The notes under the pieces: model-generated | The model's input: the letters and a program-made list of their open reading frames with translations, nothing else | Databases searched by the model: none | Told to the model about the DNA's origin: nothing | Translations under genes and position numbers: made by a program | Shown here: positions 21,822 to 42,133 of the stretch, in pieces | Position numbering within the stretch: position 1 is the first letter of the stretch | Layout of the letters: each line of letters begins with the position of its first letter | Virus record (IMG/VR): IMGVR_UViG_3300012940_001454 | Coordinates: 1 to 42,603 of that record | DNA from: a virus | Lineage: Duplodnaviria; Caudoviricetes | DNA length: 42,603 bases | Direction: 5' to 3' (one strand)

Positions 21822-22052
21822 TCATACGAAGAGTCCTCCTCTCAGGACGTATTCAAGCATCAACATATCGCCCACAAGCCCGATGAGCAACAAGCCAAGT
21901 GCAAGGAATAGCACAGACACGTCCTCACGCTTGACACCAAGCACGCCAGAACGCCGGTAGGAGGCCCTCAGAGGCTCGTAGAGCAATTGTTGCGTGTCGT
22001 GTGTGTCGTCGCCAGGGTGATTGTGCCTGTGACGTCCAGGAGGCCTCTTCAT
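21822..22052 (-). CDS. Small membrane protein
   Basis: VSVLFLALGLLLIGLVG hydrophobic segment; ATGA overlap with thyX. Confidence 0.55.
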   Translation of the reverse strand: MKRPPGRHRHNHPGDDTHDTQQLLYEPLRASYRRSGVLGVKREDVSVLFLALGLLLIGLVGDMLMLEYVLRGGLFV

Positions 22053-22831
22053 CTGCCCACCGATTCACCAGAGGGCGGGATGGCTCTCAGCGAAGGCCCT
22101 TCGTCGGTCAGAACCACCTGAAGGTCTTGGTACAACGCCGGATCCGCCTCGCTCAGCTGGCCGAAGATGACCTGAGCCAGGCGACTGATCTCGAGGTCTG
22201 CCTCCGGCTGTAGACGCTTAAGAAGCATGTCCCGCCAGGCACGATGGTTGCCGGTAAGCACGATGGCTGTAGGGGTCATGTTGGGGAGTACGGCCCGCGC
22301 AGCTTCCCGCGCCCGCTTCTTGGCTAGGGTGCCAGTCAGACCCAGTTCCTGAGCCCGACGCTCGCCGATCGGGAGCAACTTTTCGTAGGCCTGGATTGCT
22401 GCATCCCACAGATCCAGCAGGATGTCAGACGCGGCTTCGGAATGCTCGAACAGCGGAGGTACCACGAAGTCCCGGACCATCACGTCAGGATTGAGAACCA
22501 CAAACCGCTGCGACAGCTGAGAAGGCGACAGGTGCCTGTGCCGAACCAGTTCGTGTGTCAGGGATCGAGACACCCCCTTGATGTAGAAAGTCACCGTCGC
22601 GTGCTCCATCACGGACCAGTGGCCGACTTCCTCGATGTGCCCGAGGTAGTCCTTGTTACTTCGGGTCCGGGGATTCGCCTTGTCGAAGGACTGGTAGCAA
22701 GCCCGTCCAGCGAATTCCACGAGCAGGGCGCCGTCGGTGCCGTCCTTGTCGGACTCCCACACATCCTCGCTTCGGATGGCCTGGTCGTCGTAGAACTCCG
22801 TACGACCGATCATGAAGACCTCAAGCGGCAT
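22049..22831 (-). CDS. thyX: Flavin-dependent thymidylate synthase
   Basis: EFAGRACYQS, GHWSVMEH, RHRHLSPSQLSQR signature, AREAARAVLP; start MPLEV at 22831. Confidence 0.96.
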   Translation of the reverse strand: MPLEVFMIGRTEFYDDQAIRSEDVWESDKDGTDGALLVEFAGRACYQSFDKANPRTRSNKDYLGHIEEVGHWSVMEHATVTFYIKGVSRSLTHELVRHRHLSPSQLSQRFVVLNPDVMVRDFVVPPLFEHSEAASDILLDLWDAAIQAYEKLLPIGERRAQELGLTGTLAKKRAREAARAVLPNMTPTAIVLTGNHRAWRDMLLKRLQPEADLEISRLAQVIFGQLSEADPALYQDLQVVLTDEGPSLRAIPPSGESVGR

Positions 22832-23093
22832 TGTGAGCCATTCCCTTTTTGGACGGTGCCAACGAGGAGTAGTACCTCGAAGGCAAGATGTGACATTGTG
22901 CTCCTGTGATGGTGCTCCACACCGGCGTACCGTTGGTGTGCTGCGCCCTCTCTCGGCCAAAGAAGCGGCCACGACCTCGAGCGCAATGGCGACCGCGACT
23001 TTCCTTCTGGATCAGGCCTGAAAGACCGTACTGCTGATAACCTTCCCACAGCAGTGTGACAACCAGGCTGATCAGGAGTGATATCTTGATCAT
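22821..23093 (-). CDS. Hypothetical protein with hydrophobic N-terminus
   Basis: MIKISLLISLVVTLLW; overlaps thyX start. Confidence 0.35.
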   Translation of the reverse strand: MIKISLLISLVVTLLWEGYQQYGLSGLIQKESRGRHCARGRGRFFGRERAQHTNGTPVWSTITGAQCHILPSRYYSSLAPSKKGMAHNAA

Positions 23094-30787: not shown

Positions 30788-32350
30788 ATGCGCTACAAGT
30801 TCAAGACGAAGCCCTACCATCACCAGAGGGAAGGTATTAGATTTGTCTTCCGTCAATGGGGTCAAGGTCTGGGTGCTGCGCTTCTCTTTGAGCCCCGAAC
30901 AGGAAAGACTAAGACAGCGATTGACTGCTTGTCTATCCTGTACCACAAGGCGGGAGTGCGTAAGATTCTCGTCATTGCGCCCAACCGCGTGCTTGGGACG
31001 TGGGTTGAGGAGTTCCATACTCACTGTCCGCTTATGGTACAGACGATCATCTGGGATAAAGACGCGCGCAAGCGGCCGCTCCCAAAGACGATGGGTCCAT
31101 ACGACCTTCAGGTCGTCATTACCAACTTCGAGGCCTTTAGTACTCCTGGGCGTAAGACTAGATCAGGTCGTCGCTCCAAGGCTTCCGGGCGTTTCAAGCA
31201 CAGAAGCCTTATCCGCGATTGGCTGGGCAATGACTATGCTGCAGCAGTCATTGACGAGGGGCATAAGATAAAGAGCCCATCAGGTTCGGCCGCTAACATG
31301 ATCGTGTCCATGCGCGACGACTTCGAGTTCCGTCTCTTGCTCACGGGCACGCCGATTACGAAGGCCCATCGCGCGCATGACATCTATATGCTCTGGCAAT
31401 GGGTCAACCCTCGGCGATTCGCCAAGTGGGGTGCCACGGTCGAGGCGTTCAAGAATCACGTCGGCGTGTGGACGCAGAAGCACGGGTTCCCTCAGTGGTT
31501 GCGCGCTCGAGACCAGGGCATGAGGGACCTGCAGAAAGGTATTCACGCCGATGGCATGGTGGTCAGGCGAGAGGACTGCTTTGACCTGCCCCCGCGCTCA
31601 GAGCGAATCATCCCTGTGATGCTCACACCAACAACGGCGGCGCACTACCAAGAGATGGCAGGGGAGATGGTGACGCTCCTTCAGTCGGGCAAGGTGGCGG
31701 AGGCGTCCATTCCCTTGGTAGTCACGCTGCGCTTATTGCAAATGACATCCGGTTTCGTTGGCGTGCAAGAGGAGCGGGTGATCAACGGCAAGAAGAAGTT
31801 GGTGTCTATTCCTCAGGTGATCAGCCATGAGAAGCTGGACGCGCTGAAGGAGATCCTGGAGGAAGAGGTCCTCGAGCGTGAGGAAAAGGTGGTGATCGCA
31901 GCCAGGTTCAAGTACGATCTGACGTCGATAGAGGCCCTGTGTCGGAAGCTCAAGATTCCCGTGTGGGCTATTCGGGGCGGGATCTCGAGGAGCGACACGG
32001 ACAGGGCCATCCGTGCCTTTCGGACACACACTGACGGACCTGGTGCCATTGTCATGCAGCCCTCCGCGGGCTCGTTGGGCATTGACCTGTCCACAGCTAA
32101 CCACATGATCTGGTACAGCCTCACACACTCGTGGGTGGACTGGACACAGGCCTGTGATCGTATCGCCCTCAGCAAGAATCCCACTACGTTCACGTATCTA
32201 CAGGTGCCTGGCAGTGTGGATAGTTTGGTCTACAACGCGCTCATGAACGATACTGACGTTTCGCGCATGATCCTCAGTAACCCAGGTTCAATCCTGCTTG
32301 GAGGCAAGAATGAGACACCTAATCGTCGAGGGTCCCGACGGCGGGGGTAA
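30788..32350 (+). CDS. SNF2-family DNA helicase
   Basis: PYHHQ; EPRTGKT; IDEGH; LTGTP; GIDLS; QACDRI. Confidence 0.92.
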   Translation: MRYKFKTKPYHHQREGIRFVFRQWGQGLGAALLFEPRTGKTKTAIDCLSILYHKAGVRKILVIAPNRVLGTWVEEFHTHCPLMVQTIIWDKDARKRPLPKTMGPYDLQVVITNFEAFSTPGRKTRSGRRSKASGRFKHRSLIRDWLGNDYAAAVIDEGHKIKSPSGSAANMIVSMRDDFEFRLLLTGTPITKAHRAHDIYMLWQWVNPRRFAKWGATVEAFKNHVGVWTQKHGFPQWLRARDQGMRDLQKGIHADGMVVRREDCFDLPPRSERIIPVMLTPTTAAHYQEMAGEMVTLLQSGKVAEASIPLVVTLRLLQMTSGFVGVQEERVINGKKKLVSIPQVISHEKLDALKEILEEEVLEREEKVVIAARFKYDLTSIEALCRKLKIPVWAIRGGISRSDTDRAIRAFRTHTDGPGAIVMQPSAGSLGIDLSTANHMIWYSLTHSWVDWTQACDRIALSKNPTTFTYLQVPGSVDSLVYNALMNDTDVSRMILSNPGSILLGGKNETPNRRGSRRRG

Positions 32351-32906
32351 GACCCGCTTGATCGAGGCCCTCATGGCGAGGTACCCCCTGACCCAGCACG
32401 AAAAGGCCTCTACAAGCCTCCGTGGGCCTATCAGGAACCTCGCTGCATGGGTTACTGACGACATCGCCAAGATGGACCACTTCGAGGCCGTGAACGTCTA
32501 CGACCGTCACCCTGTCATCAGCGAACCCATCTATGGTCGCATCGTTCGACACAACCCCCAGCCCGGCTTCACGACCACACGCTTCGGGATGCCCGACAAC
32601 AGCCCGTGGTTGTCCACACAGCGGCTCGCGCTGTATCAGCGGACGATGGTCATCTGGTGCATTCCGACCCTCGAGCAGTGCCGCTCAGCAGTCGACCCGT
32701 CGCGTGACATGCCCGGCGTCGTCGAGAACATCGAGGAGATCTACGACTGGTACCGCAACGCGATGGCCTCGTGGGGTGGACCATCGATTCGCTACAACCT
32801 CAACATCTACCCCCGCGAGGTTCAGGAAGACGGACTGTTCGCCGGCGCCGTCAAGTTCCTGGACCTCAATGACTACCGAATCCAGGAGTGCCTCAGTGGC
32901 TCGTGA
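32310..32906 (+). CDS. dNMP (thymidylate-like) kinase
   Basis: IVEGPDGGGKT P-loop; YDRHPVISEPIYG; GGAGG RBS before ATG 32310. Confidence 0.85.
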   Translation: MRHLIVEGPDGGGKTRLIEALMARYPLTQHEKASTSLRGPIRNLAAWVTDDIAKMDHFEAVNVYDRHPVISEPIYGRIVRHNPQPGFTTTRFGMPDNSPWLSTQRLALYQRTMVIWCIPTLEQCRSAVDPSRDMPGVVENIEEIYDWYRNAMASWGGPSIRYNLNIYPREVQEDGLFAGAVKFLDLNDYRIQECLSGS

Positions 32907-33357
32907 CAAGCTGAACCAGATCCTCGACATGCAGCGGAACTATCAGCTGCGTCTTGGCCACGACTTCGAGAAGATGACGCTACGCCGGCGTATCGCCTAC
33001 ATCCTTGAGATGAGCTACGCGCTCAACGACGAAGTCCACGAGTCGACCAAGGAAGTCGGCTGGAAATCGTGGGCGAAGTCCAAGCACATCAACGAAGAGG
33101 CGTACCGATCGGAGCTGATCGATTGCTTCTTCTTCCTGCTGAACCTCATGCTGGCCGCGAACATGACGCCGATGGACATTTTCCGCGGGTACAAGGCCAA
33201 GCTGGCCAAGAACCTACAGCGCATCAAGGACCGGTACGACGGCGTATCGACCAAGTGCAAGGTCTGCAAGCGCGACTACAACGACGCCGGCGTGGAGTGT
33301 TCTCCGGCAAGGGGTCACGTCAGTTCCACACCAAGGAAGGCCTCTCGTGCTGCATAG
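32896..33357 (+). CDS. All-alpha dNTP pyrophosphatase (dimeric dUTPase/dCTPase, MazG-like fold)
   Basis: DEVHE, WKSW, ELIDCFFF, Y..K...N..R motifs; GTG 32896 with CAGGAG RBS. Confidence 0.85.
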   Translation: MARDKLNQILDMQRNYQLRLGHDFEKMTLRRRIAYILEMSYALNDEVHESTKEVGWKSWAKSKHINEEAYRSELIDCFFFLLNLMLAANMTPMDIFRGYKAKLAKNLQRIKDRYDGVSTKCKVCKRDYNDAGVECSPARGHVSSTPRKASRAA

Positions 33358-34324
33358 CTTCGTGTTCCCCGACGCCATCACCATGCACAACAAGCTGTGC
33401 AGGCGGATGATGTTCGGTCGGCTCGGCGAGCACTTCGACTGGGTCGGCTCGCCGGAAGTGGGCATGTCCAATGTCCAGATCGGCCTCCAGTCGTTTGACT
33501 ACGATTTCAACTTCGCGGAGTTATTCCAGCCGGCCACGCGCTGGCGTAAGATGGTGCGTGAGTACGTCAATCCCGATCAGCTAGACTGGGCATTGGGCAT
33601 GGTCGATGCGCACCTCGGCAAGAAGAAGACCCGCGGCATCGCCACGGTTCGCATGAACCAAGTCGAGGAGTGGGACCCGGACGATGACGACTACGACCAG
33701 GCGGGCTCAGAGCTGAGCACCAACCTCGTCGAGTCGCGCAAGACGGGCTCGCGCACCGCGCGCCGGTGGGGGTCTTGTATGCTGAACATGACCTACCGGA
33801 TCTCGCCAAGGCCGACGGTTACGCTCAACAGCCGAACCACCTACTTCGGCATGCTGGCCATGATGGACGTAACCGTCGCTCATGTCTTCGGCCGCATGTG
33901 CAACGCGATCACGGGCTTCAGCATGGAAGAAACCCAGTTCGTGTGGAACATCAACCTCGCTCAGTGGCATGGCTTCAGGTCCCTGGCATGGGCCCTCACA
34001 AACGAGTACGCACGGGCGAAACTCGAAGCGCATTATCAACAGCGCGACGATCACAAGGACCGCCCGGGCTTCTATCGTTCGTTGACCGGGTATCGTCGCT
34101 TGGCCCGCCTGGATGACGAAGGAGTACTCTACGGAGATGAGAAGTTCGCGTCGGCGCTACGGATGCGCAAGAGGTTTCACACGGAAATCTACGGGCCCGA
34201 GTACGCGGCGCAGTTCGCGGGAGGAACACTACACCCCTACTGGGGCCGCCCGTTCGACCCGCTTCCGGAACTCTGGTCCAGCACCCTCGACTTCTCGCCG
34301 ATCGGGAGACCCCTCAATGGCTAA
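33347..34324 (+). CDS. Highly diverged thymidylate synthase (ThyA)-fold protein
   Basis: GSC-x18-RTTYFGMLAMMD...FVWNINLAQWH aligns with ThyA PC-x19-RSCD...N177...FVWTGGDTHLY. Confidence 0.65.
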   Translation: MLHSFVFPDAITMHNKLCRRMMFGRLGEHFDWVGSPEVGMSNVQIGLQSFDYDFNFAELFQPATRWRKMVREYVNPDQLDWALGMVDAHLGKKKTRGIATVRMNQVEEWDPDDDDYDQAGSELSTNLVESRKTGSRTARRWGSCMLNMTYRISPRPTVTLNSRTTYFGMLAMMDVTVAHVFGRMCNAITGFSMEETQFVWNINLAQWHGFRSLAWALTNEYARAKLEAHYQQRDDHKDRPGFYRSLTGYRRLARLDDEGVLYGDEKFASALRMRKRFHTEIYGPEYAAQFAGGTLHPYWGRPFDPLPELWSSTLDFSPIGRPLNG

Positions 34325-34529
34325 GACTGAGCAACACGCTCGACTCATGAAGAACTATCAGGAGTGGCGGGTCGAGCACGCCACCGGCCTTGATAGTGTC
34401 CACGATGCGCTAGAGGCTGGCGACTATGTCAAAGCCTGCCGCATCATGGATGCAGTCGTCCAGCACGCCGCACAGGTCGCCGTCGCCATGCGCGGCATCA
34501 TGGTCAAGGAGGGTACCGATGAAGACTGA
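34317..34529 (+). CDS. 70-aa helical hypothetical protein between the two ThyA-fold genes
   Basis: MAKTEQHARL...; overlaps both neighbours; GGGAG RBS. Confidence 0.65.
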   Translation: MAKTEQHARLMKNYQEWRVEHATGLDSVHDALEAGDYVKACRIMDAVVQHAAQVAVAMRGIMVKEGTDED

Positions 34530-35280
34530 GTTCCATCGATACCGAGCAGGTCTGGTACAGCTACTGTTGGACACAGATCCTATACACACCGGCAGCTGGC
34601 AGCGAATCGACACATCCACATCTCCCGCTCACGCAACATACGAGCTGATGGATGTAGTGGTGAGGCTGAAGGTTCCTCCCTCTGTGGGGCAGCTTCAGGA
34701 ACAGCTTCAGCCTGACCTGCCGTGGGCTGAGCGTCACTTCCTCGAGCGCATCGGTGGGGTACCCCTGAACCCGCCGCCGTCGCACGAGATCTGGCCTCAC
34801 GGGAAGTTCAACGACCGACACCTCGACCAAGGCCAGTTCTCTCACACCTATCCCGAGCGATACTGGCCTCGGGAAGCCGGAGCTATCCCAACCGGAATCC
34901 GTTTCCGTTACGGCGATCTACAAGACCTACTGAACCTGTTGATGCGAGAAAGGCTTACGCGGCAAGCATACCTGCCAGTGTGGTTCCCAGAGGACACGGG
35001 AGTCCATCACGGGAAACGTGTGCCGTGTACGATCGGTTACCACTTCATGGTACGCGACGACGAGCTGAGCTGCCGCTACTACATGCGATCCTGTGACATC
35101 TACCGACACTTCACCAACGATGTCTACATGACAGCGCGCCTGATGCAGTACGTGGCCAGCTGCCTCAACGAGGATATAACCAAGACGCCCGTTCGTGTTG
35201 GTGAGCTGATTATGTATATCTCTAGCCTACACGCCTTCGTCGGCGACAAGTCAAAGCTGGAGGCGATGATTAATGGCTGA
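34519..35280 (+). CDS. ThyA-fold enzyme, predicted dCMP-modifying (dCMP hydroxymethylase-like)
   Basis: TRQAYL, VPCTIGYHF, MRSCDIYRHFTND, ISSLHAF; Asp 11 residues after the RS Arg; AAGGAGG RBS. Confidence 0.88.
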   Translation: MKTEFHRYRAGLVQLLLDTDPIHTGSWQRIDTSTSPAHATYELMDVVVRLKVPPSVGQLQEQLQPDLPWAERHFLERIGGVPLNPPPSHEIWPHGKFNDRHLDQGQFSHTYPERYWPREAGAIPTGIRFRYGDLQDLLNLLMRERLTRQAYLPVWFPEDTGVHHGKRVPCTIGYHFMVRDDELSCRYYMRSCDIYRHFTNDVYMTARLMQYVASCLNEDITKTPVRVGELIMYISSLHAFVGDKSKLEAMING

Positions 35281-35752
35281 CGACCGAATCACACGAGACC
35301 AGATGCTAATGGGCATGGCTCAGGTCGTCGCTCGTCGATCAACCTGCGAACGGTCTAAGGTAGGTGTGATCGTAGCCGTTCAATCTCGGCCCCTTGTGTC
35401 AGGCTACAACGGTGCTCCTGCTGGCATGCCCCACTGTGACCACACCTGCAACTGTGGGGCAACAGACAAGTACGGTGACACGGTCAGTGATCATGACGAC
35501 ACCTGTGCCGCCGAGATGCCTTGCACTGTCGCCGTACACGCGGAAGCTAACGCGATCGCTTACGCGGCAAGGCATGGCATCATACTCGCAGAGTCTATCC
35601 TCTACTCAACCCTCGAGCCCTGCTACGAATGTGCCAAGCTCATCATCAACGCCGGAATAGTTCGTGTGGTTTATTCCATGGCGTATCGTAGCCATTTGGG
35701 ATTGATGTTGCTACGAGAGGCCGGGGTGGAGACGTGCTATCAGGGGGCATGA
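35273..35752 (+). CDS. dCMP deaminase
   Basis: RSTC, GYNG, HAEANA, PCYEC. Confidence 0.93.
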   Translation: MADDRITRDQMLMGMAQVVARRSTCERSKVGVIVAVQSRPLVSGYNGAPAGMPHCDHTCNCGATDKYGDTVSDHDDTCAAEMPCTVAVHAEANAIAYAARHGIILAESILYSTLEPCYECAKLIINAGIVRVVYSMAYRSHLGLMLLREAGVETCYQGA

Positions 35753-35911
35753 AGCGAACTTGCCGAAGATGCAAGGTCCACTGGCGAGCTTAGGGGAATG
35801 CTGTGCAACAACCGCAACAGCGGCTTAGGTTTCTTTGCTGATGATCCTGAGCTACTCGAGAGGGCAGCCCGGTATATCCGAACTAACCTCGTGAGGAGTG
35901 CTGATGAATAA
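35749..35911 (+). pseudogene. Internally deleted, frameshifted endonuclease VII relic
   Basis: MKRTCRRCK start, then in another frame STGELRGMLCNNRNSGLGFFADDPELLERAARYI (second Cys of CxxC changed to Arg). Confidence 0.75.
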
Positions 35912-38462
35912 GCGATTGCAGATGGCCGTGAGGAACGCCGTCTGTTCAGCTTGCAAGATGTGCCAAGGCGTTGATGAGAAAGACATCTGCGTCACAGGCA
36001 ATGGTCCAACAGGCGCACGCATTGGTGTAGTGACGACGTTCCCCCTGAACCCAAAGTCCTACATGCTCAAGAATCTCAGGGCATGGCTAAAGGGTGCAGG
36101 CATCGATCCCGACCAAGTCATGTGGCTGTCGGCGATCAAGTGCTCAGCAGATGGCTCGATCACCAAGTCTGTAATGAAGGCGTGCCGTCCATATCTGGAA
36201 GCAGAGCTGGACTTCCTGAAGCTGGACTACGTGCTTTCGATTGGTATGGAAGCTCTCTTTGCCTGTACGGGCAAGTCGGGCATCATGAAGTACCGCGGAC
36301 GCACCGAGGTACGTGGCCACACCATCATTTTCCCAACGATCAGCCCGTCCATGCTCTCGAGGAACCCAGGCCTGACTGCCGGCTTCGAGGCAGACATACG
36401 ATACTTCGGCAACCTCACGCGCGGCGTTGACGCCAACGATGATCCCTGGCATCTACCGTACGACGATCAGTGGACGACGATCGACACGGAGGACGCTCTC
36501 AGAGACGCCGTACGCGCTTTAGGCGTTGCTGACGTCGTTTCGTACGACATCGAAACTGTCGGCGCTTCTGAGCACCTCTCAGGCGCCGCAATCGTGTCTC
36601 TGTCGTACACGTTGCTCACGAACGGCGAGCCGCACGTCTGGACGTTGCCGCTGTTCCATCCCGAGTCAGTGTGGCGGGACCAATGGATCGAAGTCCTTAA
36701 CATCATTGGTCGAGCCATGCGCAAGGTGCCCAAGCGTGTGGCCCATAACGCCAAGTTCGACACGCGATGGATGCGGCACTTCGGCGTCAAGATAATGCCA
36801 ACCTTCGATACGATCATTGCTACCTCCCTGCTCGAGGAGAACAGGCCCAAGGACCTGAAGTCGTTGGCCCTACACCTGCTGGGTGCAGACCCGTGGGCGA
36901 TCGAGACACGGGAGCTGCTGACGACGCCGCTGGACGAGGTGCTCGACTACAACGGGCTGGACACGTGGCACACGCTGCGTCTGTACCTGCTATTCCGTGA
37001 GCAGCTGATGGAACAGCCGAGACTGGCACGTCTGTTTACCAAGCTCATGATGCCGGCTGTGCGAGAACTTACGCGCGTCGAGGCTCGCGGCGTGTACGTA
37101 GACCGTAAGGTGCTCGAGGAGAACTGGGCGATCGTGCGGGACACGCTCGGGCGCATCGAGAAGGAGTTGTCCGAGTACCTCCCCCATGATGACGAAGTGC
37201 CAGACAGGTTCAAGAAGAAGGGCGTGGTACAGGTCAACTTCGGCGCGTCCAACTTCGCGCGCTGGTGGTTGTTCGAGTACCTACAGTGGCCCGTTGTCTC
37301 ATGGGGTAAGCTAAGAGAGGATGGTACCCGATGGCCCTCTATGTCGGAGAGTGTATTCCAACTGTTGGCTGAACGCGGTGATCCTGTCGCTAAACTACTC
37401 CTCGAGCGCGTACAGTGGCAGAAGTTCCACACCTCATTCTTCACACCGTACAGTGCGCAGCTCACCGAGGACAGTCGCCTTCACAGCACTTTCAAGCCGT
37501 GGGGTACTGTCACGGGTAGACTGTCGTCTGGCAAAGAGGATCCGGAGAAGATCACAGGCACGCGGGCACGCAACTCGATGCAGGGTGTGAACCTGCAACA
37601 GGTCCCGCGTAACAAGCTGGTCCGTGGTGTGTTCGGCGCCGCGCCGGGTTGGACATTCGTCGAGGCAGACTACTCGCAGATTGAACTGAGGATCGCTGCC
37701 TTCCTCGCCAATGAGCGACGTATGCTCCATCTGTACGCGACAGGCCAGGATATTCACATGGCGACGGCCATGCAGATGACCGGCAAGCCGGCTTCGCTTG
37801 TCACGCCGGAGGAACGCAAGAAGGCCAAGGCGGTGAACTTCGGCTTCCTCTATGGCATGGGCTGGGAGAAGTTCATTCAGACAGCATTCCTCAACTACGG
37901 GCTGCATATTAGCGAGGAAGAATCCCGCGCATTCCGTGAGGCATTCTTCCAGCAGTTCCCTGACCTGCCGGCATGGCACCGTCGGCAACGTATGCTAGCC
38001 CGTAAGTACAAGAGGGTAGAGACTCCGATGGGTCGCGTACGACACTTGCCTGATGTCGACTCGATGAATGAAGAGGTCCGAGCTGAAGCTGAACGACAAG
38101 CTATCAATAGTCCTGTCCAAGCAATGGCTTCAGACATGGCGTTGCTGTCCCTCGTTCACACCGCCCGACGTTTCCGAGCAGAAGGCATCGAGGCATATCC
38201 GATCTGCGCCGTACACGACGCGGTTAATTACGAAATCTCTGACCGGGACGTACCTCGGGCTATACCCATTATCAAGGAGACGATGGAGAACTTGCCTCTC
38301 GAGGAACTGTTTGGGTGTACGCTTACTGTTCCGATCGTCGTTGATATCAAAGCCGGGAAACACTGGGGTGGGTCAAAGGAAATACCTGGGGAGGTGATTG
38401 CTAGTGGCCGCTCCGCTTTGCGCTTGTGGTTGCGGGACAACACTGAAGCCCTTTCCTCGTAG
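35904..38462 (+). CDS. polA: Family A DNA polymerase with N-terminal UDG family 4-like domain and 3'-5' exonuclease
   Basis: CSACKMC/AIKC/CRPYL (UDG-like); YDIET, HNAKFD, YNGLD (exonuclease); DYSQIELR, KAVNFGFLYG, VHD (polymerase); GAGGAG RBS before ATG 35904. Confidence 0.96.
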   Translation: MNKRLQMAVRNAVCSACKMCQGVDEKDICVTGNGPTGARIGVVTTFPLNPKSYMLKNLRAWLKGAGIDPDQVMWLSAIKCSADGSITKSVMKACRPYLEAELDFLKLDYVLSIGMEALFACTGKSGIMKYRGRTEVRGHTIIFPTISPSMLSRNPGLTAGFEADIRYFGNLTRGVDANDDPWHLPYDDQWTTIDTEDALRDAVRALGVADVVSYDIETVGASEHLSGAAIVSLSYTLLTNGEPHVWTLPLFHPESVWRDQWIEVLNIIGRAMRKVPKRVAHNAKFDTRWMRHFGVKIMPTFDTIIATSLLEENRPKDLKSLALHLLGADPWAIETRELLTTPLDEVLDYNGLDTWHTLRLYLLFREQLMEQPRLARLFTKLMMPAVRELTRVEARGVYVDRKVLEENWAIVRDTLGRIEKELSEYLPHDDEVPDRFKKKGVVQVNFGASNFARWWLFEYLQWPVVSWGKLREDGTRWPSMSESVFQLLAERGDPVAKLLLERVQWQKFHTSFFTPYSAQLTEDSRLHSTFKPWGTVTGRLSSGKEDPEKITGTRARNSMQGVNLQQVPRNKLVRGVFGAAPGWTFVEADYSQIELRIAAFLANERRMLHLYATGQDIHMATAMQMTGKPASLVTPEERKKAKAVNFGFLYGMGWEKFIQTAFLNYGLHISEEESRAFREAFFQQFPDLPAWHRRQRMLARKYKRVETPMGRVRHLPDVDSMNEEVRAEAERQAINSPVQAMASDMALLSLVHTARRFRAEGIEAYPICAVHDAVNYEISDRDVPRAIPIIKETMENLPLEELFGCTLTVPIVVDIKAGKHWGGSKEIPGEVIASGRSALRLWLRDNTEALSS

Positions 38463-40534: not shown

Positions 40535-41349
40535 TGGCTCGCAAGGACTACGCCGCGATCGCCAGGGCTCGCATTCACCGGCCGGCCACACACGATCGTA
40601 TGCCACGCATTCTCATCTTCGCCCGACCCAAGAAAGGCAAGACGAGATTCTGCGCAACGGCACCTGACGTTCTGATCCTTGACCCCGAGGATGGAACCAA
40701 GGAGGAGAAAGCCCTCAATCCTGCGGTGTGGCCGGTGAACGAGTGGGCAGACGTAGTCGACGCCTACCACTTCGTCAAGGGAACTGACGAGTACAAGTGG
40801 GTGGCGTTTGACTCCTTCTTCAAGATCTACACTCAGCTTCTCCATTGGCTGATGCGAACACGGTCTGGGGAAGTTGACCTCGAGAAGATCCCTCAGTCCG
40901 TGCAGATCCAGTCGTACGGTCGCGCCAACGAGATGGTGAAGGGCATGCTGCAGAACTTCCATGCCCTTCACAACATCGGACTCATCATCACTTGCCCGGA
41001 ACGTCTGGTCTCTGTCGAAACCGTAGACGACATTGACGACGACGAGGCCGAGGCCACCACCTATCAGATCGTCCCGGACCTCCCTAAGGGAGCACGGGCT
41101 GCGATAACACAGATCGTTGACGTCTGCGGCCGACTGTACGTCGTCAGTGGAGAATTCGAGCGCAACGTCAGAAGGGGAGGCAAGATCGAGACAATCACAG
41201 AAACACGGCAGCGACGCCTGTGGATTGGTGTGGACGATCGCTACGAAACCGGTTATCGTAGCGTGCATCAACTTCCCGACTTCCTGCCCAATCCAACAGT
41301 GAAGTCCGTAATGCGCGCACTACGTCAAGGAGTAACAGAGAATGGCTAA
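40534..41349 (+). CDS. AAA_24 / Sak4-like ATPase (recombinase)
   Basis: ARPKKGKT, LDPEDG, VAFDS; lies between nuclease and SSB genes. Confidence 0.85.
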   Translation: MARKDYAAIARARIHRPATHDRMPRILIFARPKKGKTRFCATAPDVLILDPEDGTKEEKALNPAVWPVNEWADVVDAYHFVKGTDEYKWVAFDSFFKIYTQLLHWLMRTRSGEVDLEKIPQSVQIQSYGRANEMVKGMLQNFHALHNIGLIITCPERLVSVETVDDIDDDEAEATTYQIVPDLPKGARAAITQIVDVCGRLYVVSGEFERNVRRGGKIETITETRQRRLWIGVDDRYETGYRSVHQLPDFLPNPTVKSVMRALRQGVTENG

Positions 41350-42133
41350 GGCCAAGGCAGACACGACCGCCAAGGTCCGTACCCTCGACTTCACGGGAGT
41401 CAAGGACCGCGGTCAGTTCAACACCCGTCATCGCAAGCCCGGCGAGTACCTCGCCCGCATGGTCGCCGTCGAGGAGGGAATGTCCAAGAACGACAACCTC
41501 CAGCTGATCTTCACCGTCCAGATCGAGGGCGACAAGCGGTCGTCGTACCCGCTCTACTGCGGTCTCGATCAGAAGTCGCTGTGGAAGCTTCGCTCGCTGA
41601 TCACAGCAGTCGGACTACCCACACCCACGGGACGCGCGAAGGTCAATCCGAACTCGCTGCTCAACAAGGTCTTCGGCGTGCTGCTCGAGGACGATGAGTA
41701 CGAGGGCCGCGTGAAGTCCAAGATCCAGGACTGGTGGCCGAAGAGCGAGGGAGGCCCGTACGAGAACGCCGACGCCAGCAGCACCAAGTCCCGTCAGGTC
41801 GAGGACGACGACGAGGACGACGACGAGGACGAGCCGCCGCGCAAGCCGGCGAAGAAGGCCTCCAAGCGTCCCGTGGAGCCTGAAGAGGACGACGACGAGG
41901 ACGAGGAGGACGACGACGAGGACGACGAGCCGGAGCCTCCGAAGAAGGCTTCCAAGAAGACAGCTCCCAAGAAGCGTGTTCCCGAGCCGGAGGACGACGA
42001 GGAGGACGAAGAGGACGACGACGAGGACGACGCTCCTCCGCCGCCCAAGAAGAAGGCCGCCCCGGCCAAGAAGGCCAAGCGTCGTCAGGTCGAAGAAGAC
42101 GATGACGACGAGCTGGACATCGACGATCTGTGA
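41342..42133 (+). CDS. Single-stranded DNA-binding protein-like with long acidic/basic tail
   Basis: LDFTGV...PGEY...SLWKLR...DDEYEGR..SKI; DE-rich C-terminus ending DELDIDDL. Confidence 0.75.
   Translation: MAKAKADTTAKVRTLDFTGVKDRGQFNTRHRKPGEYLARMVAVEEGMSKNDNLQLIFTVQIEGDKRSSYPLYCGLDQKSLWKLRSLITAVGLPTPTGRAKVNPNSLLNKVFGVLLEDDEYEGRVKSKIQDWWPKSEGGPYENADASSTKSRQVEDDDEDDDEDEPPRKPAKKASKRPVEPEEDDDEDEEDDDEDDEPEPPKKASKKTAPKKRVPEPEDDEEDEEDDDEDDAPPPPKKKAAPAKKAKRRQVEEDDDDELDIDDL

Follow-up and report, generated by a model that had tools for sequence, protein, structure and literature searches.

What do two proteins of the thymidylate synthase (ThyA) fold, encoded side by side in one phage, make between them? 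The question arises from IMG/VR record IMGVR_UViG_3300012940_001454, of which we analysed positions 1 to 42,603 (hereafter the window, a single stretch of 42,603 nt that holds most of the genome of a siphovirus-like actinobacterial phage, with about 59% GC). Overlapping genes for a kinase, a pyrophosphatase, a highly divergent protein (protein A), a 70-aa open reading frame (ORF), a ThyA homologue (protein B), and a deaminase are followed there by a family A DNA polymerase (PolA) (Table 1). An earlier note made from the sequence alone (the original prediction) took this block for a cytosine-modification cassette on the plan of phage T4. The account that we prefer, at somewhat less than even confidence, reads the block as a conserved pre-replicative pyrimidine module in which a C5-modified cytosine is made in two steps, with this base partly incorporated or weakly protective.

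Structure and active site of proteins A and B

Protein A has no match in Pfam or NCBIfam, and no match was obtained from PDB sequences (profile search included) or from a profile-profile comparison with protein B, so that its fold assignment rests on a predicted structure. The AlphaFold (AF2) model was built from a 120-row alignment and has a predicted local distance difference test (pLDDT) score of 88.9. Its top Foldseek matches are all members of the ThyA family (best 9iqu, E 1e-5), and all seven chains that VIA returned at Z>=8 belong to the ThyA superfamily (Z 14.8, 12.4, 10.4, 10.4, 9.9, 9.7, and 8.8), with unrelated folds following at 4.1. The best VIA match is 9iqc (Z 14.8, root-mean-square deviation 3.6, 190 aligned residues), and MilA gives Z 12.4. 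On the evidence of this model, protein A adopts the ThyA fold, as the original prediction had read it. In the ESM Atlas, 21 of 30 feature matches for A are clusters with some PF00303 members (best 37%), which serves as a lead only. Yersinia phage P744 ORF027, a member of the A family, was labelled 'pyrimidine hmase synthase' by its depositor; the fold had thus already been noticed in GenBank.

In a gap-free register with B, residues C144, R163, and D174 of protein A correspond to ThyA C146, R166, and N177D. Across 197 aligned rows, C144 is kept in 195 (the other two are gaps), R163 in 197, D174 in 194 (with Glu in the remaining three), and Y73 in 193. The folate-side residues are lost: the window sequence has Y at D169, L at G173, and W at L143, and the family as a whole carries Tyr, Glu, or Ser at 169, an aliphatic residue at 173, and mostly Trp at 143. 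Additional Arg-rich helices are present at the C-terminus. The family is wide, as the members of a 44-row alignment are 11–48% identical to the A of the window, and a profile of these 44 diverse members reached 842 clusters at 50% identity. Because the nucleophile and the nucleotide-binding residues are invariant in so divergent a family, protein A is likely to be an active dCMP-type enzyme. We also considered A as a dead scaffold and rejected this, given the invariance of the catalytic triad.

Some relatives hold further A-type genes. Phage PMBT14 encodes a short (~180 aa) third ThyA-fold type with Cys, Arg, and Asp (L060:9765-10313, + strand; profile E 2e-10), hidden beneath the annotated N-terminal extension of its dCMP deaminase. 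The short third type is apparently the sole A-like gene at L089:10162-10995 (+), where it lies away from B, and two A genes stand in tandem in one phage (L022/L130:5053-6983).

Protein B gave an AF2 model with pLDDT 93.8 and VIA Z scores of 18.5–20 against seven ThyA-family chains. Its residues C170, R190, D193, and D201 supply C146, R166, D169, and D177 of ThyA numbering. When compared residue by residue with E. coli ThyA, the Xp12 thymidylate synthase (TS), T4 gp42, RB69 gp48, and SPO1 gp29, its cofactor pocket is remodelled, with R167 at L143, R196-H197 at L172-G173, and Gln at 127'. Among 117 distinct B sequences, C170, R190, D201, and R167 are each present in 114 (three gaps), R196 in 113, H197 in 104, H73 in 113, and E76 in all 117; position 169 is Asp in 110. 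In a single locus (L127:6268-6966), an extra B-like gene lacks the catalytic Cys and has Asn177.

Asp177 is read in the literature as specific for dCMP (PMC13326640; PMC8670742). Both A and B carry Asp177 together with the catalytic Cys, so dCMP use is predicted for each, and the earlier view of them as dCMP-type ThyA paralogues stands. The published rules for the product assign a hydrophobic residue at position 143 to methylases, Asp or Glu there to hydroxymethylases, and D169N to hydroxylases (PMC13326640, PMC6400193). Protein B has Arg167 three residues before the catalytic Cys in 114/114 ungapped rows, in place of the Asp or Glu of T4-type hydroxymethylases. The D169N mark of hydroxylases is absent from B (Asp/Glu) and from A (Tyr/Glu/Ser), and a 5-hydroxy-dCMP synthase of that type was therefore rejected for either protein. 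Xp12-type methylases likewise differ, as B has His at Gly173 and Arg at Leu172 and dihydrofolate reductase (DHFR) was found in 0/59 A/B genomes (Xp12 was positive as a control, and the gene is annotated in PaMx74). Judged by its residues, B matches the Asp177 rule but no published methylase, hydroxymethylase, or hydroxylase signature.

The canonical ThyA signature of Asn177, Arg21, Leu143, His147, and Gly173 is also missing from B, and NCBIfam scores fall far under the cut-offs. This bears on another explanation of the block, an ordinary thymidylate-supply operon with B as an unusual methylase of dUMP and A as a paralogue that is dead or structural. A kinase, a dUTPase, a deaminase, and a TS together form the customary dTTP-supply set, which is how GenBank annotates them. 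Nevertheless, the presence of Asp177 in 114/114 ungapped B sequences, the loss of Arg21, Leu143, His147, and Gly173, the invariant triad of A, and the retention of a canonical ThyA or ThyX alongside leave this explanation a very slight chance.

Distribution and co-occurrence

A gene-neighbourhood survey, as suggested in the original prediction, found that the block recurs. Protein A matched 85 GenBank records (RefSeq duplicates included), such as Gordonia phages, Muddy/FF47, Zuko, Triscuit, and Shrew, and 54 IMG/VR loci. The same gene order with a more distant A is present in PMBT14, Serbin, Polewnik, Desulfofustis MD02, and Clostridium P21. The block thus occurs in actinobacterial, proteobacterial, and clostridial phages. 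Protein B is encoded in 63/64 A loci (the exception ends just after A), the kinase in 62/64, and all five enzymes in 48/64, with A usually directly upstream of B and overlapping it.

The reverse does not hold to the same degree. Loci fetched via B number 89: A is encoded in 67, the upstream sequence is too short in 6, and no A lies nearby in 16 (10 distinct sequences). The latter are 16 of the 83 evaluable loci, and several are large records. The complete 434-kb genome G001 (L146) encodes B, a canonical Asn177 ThyA, a gp56-like enzyme, and a deaminase; a local search with the 197-row profile found no A in it, the best hit (E 0.003) being an unrelated coiled-coil protein. In five B-only records, a word-based search returned no A, although it had no positive control. 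Three jumbo records, G001, G002 (L132), and G003 (L134), carry the B type alone with a separate canonical ThyA. As A adjoins B throughout and jumbo phages also carry B with no A detected, the distribution suggests that B arose or acts first and A second. The B tree was a quick version in which the clade of B-only sequences has support 6, and no order of events was drawn from it.

These loci also bear on the possibility that A and B are the subunits of a heterodimer that performs a single reaction, with the phosphate sites completed mutually as in ThyA dimers. The adjacency of A to B, mostly directly upstream and overlapping, and the dimer-face beta-sheet retained in the A model are consistent with such a pairing. 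The original prediction had entertained a heterodimeric reaction, but an obligate heterodimer was not supported, since B-type genes with the identical active-site signature occur without detectable A. Some phages have two A-type genes or the short third one, as would rather be expected of a chain of steps, and the Arg126' equivalent of A is only half conserved (R in 98/197 rows). We regard the heterodimer as having a small chance. Prediction of an A:B complex scored 0.00, which is evidence for neither side.

ThyX had been placed in the scheme as the supplier of dTMP. It is present in 19/59 relatives and absent from 40/59, and was rejected as a core component. Canonical ThyA was found in 1/59 (Triscuit, where L004:11292-12997 encodes gp66, a B, and then gp67, a canonical Asn177 ThyA, both annotated as thymidylate synthase). 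Hence 20/59 genomes have ThyX or canonical ThyA and 39/59 have neither. The retention of canonical ThyA (Triscuit and the three jumbo records) or ThyX (19/59 relatives) alongside B argues that B is not the source of dTMP.

Palindrome avoidance

Restriction leaves a trace in phage genomes that can be compared between modified and unmodified phages. We scored a 4- or 6-base palindrome as avoided when it was observed at no more than 25% of its Markov expectation with Poisson P<0.001; several of the genomes are partial. T4 is C-substituted, and SPO1 and M6 are T-modified. The C-modified status of Xp12, PaMx74, and RB69 was taken from published papers. The C-substituted phages avoid 0 (T4), 1 (RB69), 1 (Xp12), and 0 (PaMx74) palindromes, the T-modified SPO1 and M6 avoid 6 and 19, and the presumed unmodified mycobacteriophages D29 and TM4 and the likewise presumed unmodified phiC31 avoid 16, 14, and 3. 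The A/B genomes avoid 0–7, Muddy 6. The window avoids ACGCGT (0 seen, 11 expected) and TCGCGA (2 seen, 12 expected), and stronger cases are GATC in Serbin (L184-L186; 3 seen, 180 expected), GCCGGC in G012 (0/45), and CTCGAG in Zuko (0/33).

The original prediction held that dCTP is removed and cytosine replaced wholesale, as in T4. Such complete replacement of the T4 or Xp12 style, with dCTP destroyed by the gp56-like enzyme, would agree with the four enzyme classes shared with T4, with the 4/19 A/B genomes that avoid no palindrome, and with the B-only jumbo records G001, G002, and G003, which avoid 0, 1, and 0, like fully C-substituted phages. Muddy also forms plaques on a strain in which phage BPs is restricted by a type I system (PMC11604996), which is circumstantial, as Muddy may lack sites. 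However, at least two C-containing palindromes are strongly avoided in 14/19 A/B genomes versus 0/4 C-substituted phages (Fisher p 0.014). Two related pairs from other hosts make up the four controls, and avoidance may have other causes, so this comparison makes full replacement less likely only; we consider it quite improbable, and the wholesale T4 scheme was not upheld. The A/B phages behave as if their cytosines were still visible to some restriction enzymes. Muddy avoids fewer palindromes than D29 and TM4, as partial protection would predict.

The same data bear on a route to the T positions, in which a C5-substituted dCMP is deaminated to dTMP/dTTP or a T analogue and virion cytosine stays canonical. 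C-containing palindromes (all-GC ones in 7/19 A/B genomes) are avoided as in SPO1 and M6, and the polymerase fused to a uracil-DNA glycosylase (UDG) domain resembles SPO1 gp31 (PMC13697223). Deaminases beside Asp177 TS act on 5mdC/5hmdC nucleotides and have been proposed to supply dTTP (bioRxiv 2024.12.05.627091), and 39/59 relatives have neither ThyX nor a canonical ThyA. Set against this are the ThyX or canonical ThyA of 20/59 genomes and of the three B-only jumbo records, beside which a second dTMP route would be redundant and which speak against full T replacement, as well as the absence of DHFR (0/59) and of the Xp12 residue pattern from B. We judge this route unlikely, but with enough weight to be kept in view.

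Gene organization and other genes of the block

The predicted block of overlapping genes was confirmed in full, all on the + strand, with successive overlaps of 11, 11, 8, 11, and 8 nt from kinase to deaminase and a 145-nt gap between deaminase and PolA. A contig from a second study spans 33826-35776 with five letters differing, so the layout of that part is no assembly artefact. Protein A was also found on a 54,960-nt contig; the genome is therefore at least ~55 kb and the window incomplete.

Table 1. Coordinates of the block and of ThyX in the window
Feature	Position	Strand	Basis or remark
P-loop dNMP/thymidylate kinase, 198 aa	32310..32906	+	phrog_761 E 8.6e-12
All-alpha dNTP pyrophosphatase, T4 gp56-like, 153 aa, GTG start	32896..33357	+	PF08761 dUTPase_2 E 7e-9
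Protein A, divergent ThyA fold, 325 aa	33347..34324	+	predicted structure; phrog_13667 (function unknown)
70-aa ORF	34317..34529	+	lineage-specific filler rather than core
Protein B, putative dCMP-type ThyA homologue, 253 aa	34519..35280	+	PF00303 E 2.9e-8
dCMP/dCTP deaminase family protein, 159 aa	35273..35752	+	PF00383 E 1.2e-19
Broken endonuclease VII relic (homing-type)	35749..35908	+	PF02945 E 5.6e-7; three-frame translation
Family A DNA polymerase, N-terminal family-4-like UDG domain	35898..38462	+	PF00476, PF01612 (3'-5' exonuclease), PF03167 (UDG, E 2e-10)
ThyX, outside block	22049..22972	-	PF02511 E 2.2e-46; TIGR02170 over cut-off; start likely near 22831

The pyrophosphatase is T4 gp56-like by alignment (27% identity over 143 aa, pairwise E 1e-12), which agrees with the original comparison to T4 gp56. 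T4 gp56 is annotated as acting on dCTP and dUTP, and either or both may be the substrate here. The deaminase retains its zinc ligands (HAE and PCxxC) and belongs to the dCMP/dCTP family, with C or a modified C as its putative substrate. The endonuclease relic and the UDG-like domain of PolA were both found as predicted. The relic consists of an N-terminal piece in another frame and a fragment in the deaminase–PolA gap, and a relative has an intact endonuclease VII between B and the deaminase (L058:10007-10510); the different positions show that this nuclease family inserts at differing sites of the block. In an alignment with SPO1 gp31, motifs A and B of the UDG domain are both missing from the window PolA, and its catalytic motifs look degenerate; a pattern search found both motifs in only 18/91 homologues.

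The 70-aa ORF had been counted as a component. Homologues are present in only 7/64 loci at E<=0.02, and Muddy, GTE2, and Zuko have A and B without an intervening gene; the ORF was rejected as a pathway member. Phage GTE2 has a cutinase-like gene inserted between B and the deaminase (gp37, L001:10924-11763). Outside the block, window positions 41342-42133 encode a protein of 263 aa that lacks a Pfam match and ends in a low-complexity tail, very long and acidic/basic; the counterpart position in Shrew is annotated as single-stranded DNA-binding protein.

The original prediction saw no recognisable glycosyltransferase. The window by itself is insufficient for this point, but Pfam scans of three near-whole relatives found no glycosyltransferase or other base-modifier family (48/62 ORFs in Muddy and 42/51 in Serbin, with structural-region ORFs excluded, and 69/69 G006 ORFs of 90–900 aa). 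Many of these ORFs are without any match, and an unrecognised base modifier may be present in the relatives.

A proposed two-step pathway and its weak points

In the pathway that we prefer, B would turn dCMP into a C5-substituted dCMP via its Cys by non-canonical chemistry, and A would tailor the product of B in a second step. The kinase and PolA would then place the modified nucleotide at probably only some of the C positions, or else in a form that protects weakly. The role of the gp56-like enzyme would be to trim dUTP/dCTP, and that of the deaminase to feed dUMP or dTMP. From ThyA chemistry, we infer that the Cys of each enzyme adds to C6 of the cytosine nucleotide and so activates C5. More weakly, we infer that A and B do not use methylene-tetrahydrofolate canonically, since in both enzymes other residues stand in place of Glu58 and Gly173. 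The Glu58 position of B is probably His73, to judge from the register of helix 69-78 and from Clostridium phage P21, which has Glu there. A loss of folate chemistry is likely for B, although the invariant Glu76, one turn from His73, could stand in for Glu58. Its three invariant Arg and its His and Glu would suit an anionic co-substrate. Protein A, which also lacks Asp169, would act on the product of B without folate, for instance by exocyclic-methylene exchange. The ideas of an anionic co-substrate and of methylene exchange draw on these residues and on general ThyA chemistry.

A fuller version can be proposed, namely that A and B act folate-independently and in sequence at the nucleotide level, with a non-folate anionic co-substrate, to make an undescribed cytosine with a carbon-linked C5 substituent in hundreds of phage lineages, Muddy included. 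We regard this version as doubtful, though worth stating.

Several observations weigh against the two-step account. hhalign picks a different Glu58 register in B, and B retains the Asp169, Trp80, and Tyr94 equivalents, so that it may use folate. The absence of A from jumbo phages may be a detection limit, as a real short A-type protein scored E 0.17 with a 44-row profile and 5e-6 with the 197-row profile. The two palindromes avoided by the window are no different from the three of unmodified phiC31, and the avoidance data therefore also fit no incorporation at all. A UDG-fused PolA with deaminase, dUTPase, and TS homologue is the published layout of T-modified phages (PMC13697223), and our literature search gave no biochemical or nucleoside result for any member. 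In that search, which did not extend to subscription papers, no work on the A family, on B proteins of the Arg143/His173 type, or on the DNA bases of these phages came up, nor did a described pathway that matches the block, as had been surmised. Passages of PMC12908700, PMC13314858, PMC11269248, PMC10893344, and bioRxiv 2023.02.06.527410 mention no base modification for these phages.

The block holds two ThyA offshoots with signatures outside the published classes, and it is carried by cultured phages whose hosts span at least three phyla. To our knowledge, a new active-site signature in a characterised ThyA offshoot has in each case meant a new DNA base (5-methylcytosine, 5-hydroxymethylcytosine, 5-hydroxymethyluracil, and 5-hydroxycytosine). 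Muddy, a therapy phage given to patients, carries the block, and its DNA chemistry was not found in print. A new base, if true, would matter for escape from restriction and for how the immune system senses therapeutic phage DNA, and a cytosine-to-dTMP route, if true, would be a third way to make thymidylate.

Comparison with known systems

The general scheme in which an Asp177 TS with deaminase, pyrophosphohydrolase, and PolA marks C-modified genomes is already published (PMC8670742, bioRxiv 2024.12.05.627091). The combination was present in 104/149 restriction-resistant C-modified contigs versus 17/277 (bioRxiv 2024.12.05.627091), and the same preprint, on the methylation-selective deaminase mSCD, reports seven TS assayed, two of them without a 5mdC product. 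New here are the signature of B, the jumbo phages with B but no A found, the accessory status of ThyX, and the evidence from palindromes that speaks against full replacement.

The T4 5-hydroxymethylcytosine pathway (gp42, gp56, gp1, cd, and glucosyltransferases) is alike in its ThyA-fold Cys/Asp177 enzyme, gp56-like pyrophosphatase, kinase, and deaminase. Unlike T4 gp42, B has Arg for the water-activating Asp145 and Arg-His for Phe174-Gly175. The block further differs from T4 in its second ThyA-fold enzyme, in having PolA and not PolB, in persisting palindrome avoidance, and in that no glycosyltransferase was found in the relatives. The 5-methylcytosine module of Xp12 and PaMx74 (with the mSCD deaminase) shares an Asp177 TS by a dCMP-family deaminase, a nucleotide hydrolase, and PolA, but has one TS where two are present here, and the Xp12 enzyme keeps Arg21, Glu58, and Gly173 together with DHFR, which B does not.

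The best structural match of A is with the flavin-dependent 5-hydroxy-dCMP synthases (RB69 gp48, DLP3 gp80, and HY126 AfhB; 9iqc/9iqu; PMC13326640), which provide a known case of folate being abandoned within the ThyA fold. However, their diagnostic D169N is missing from A and B, and no arabinosylation genes were seen. Finally, the SPO1 5-hydroxymethyluracil module (PMC13697223) is alike in its UDG-PolA, deaminase, pyrophosphatase, and TS homologue, and SPO1 gp29 and B share Arg-Gln at 126'/127'; in contrast, gp29 has Asn177 and Asp143, whereas A and B have Asp177 and the UDG motifs of the window look degenerate.

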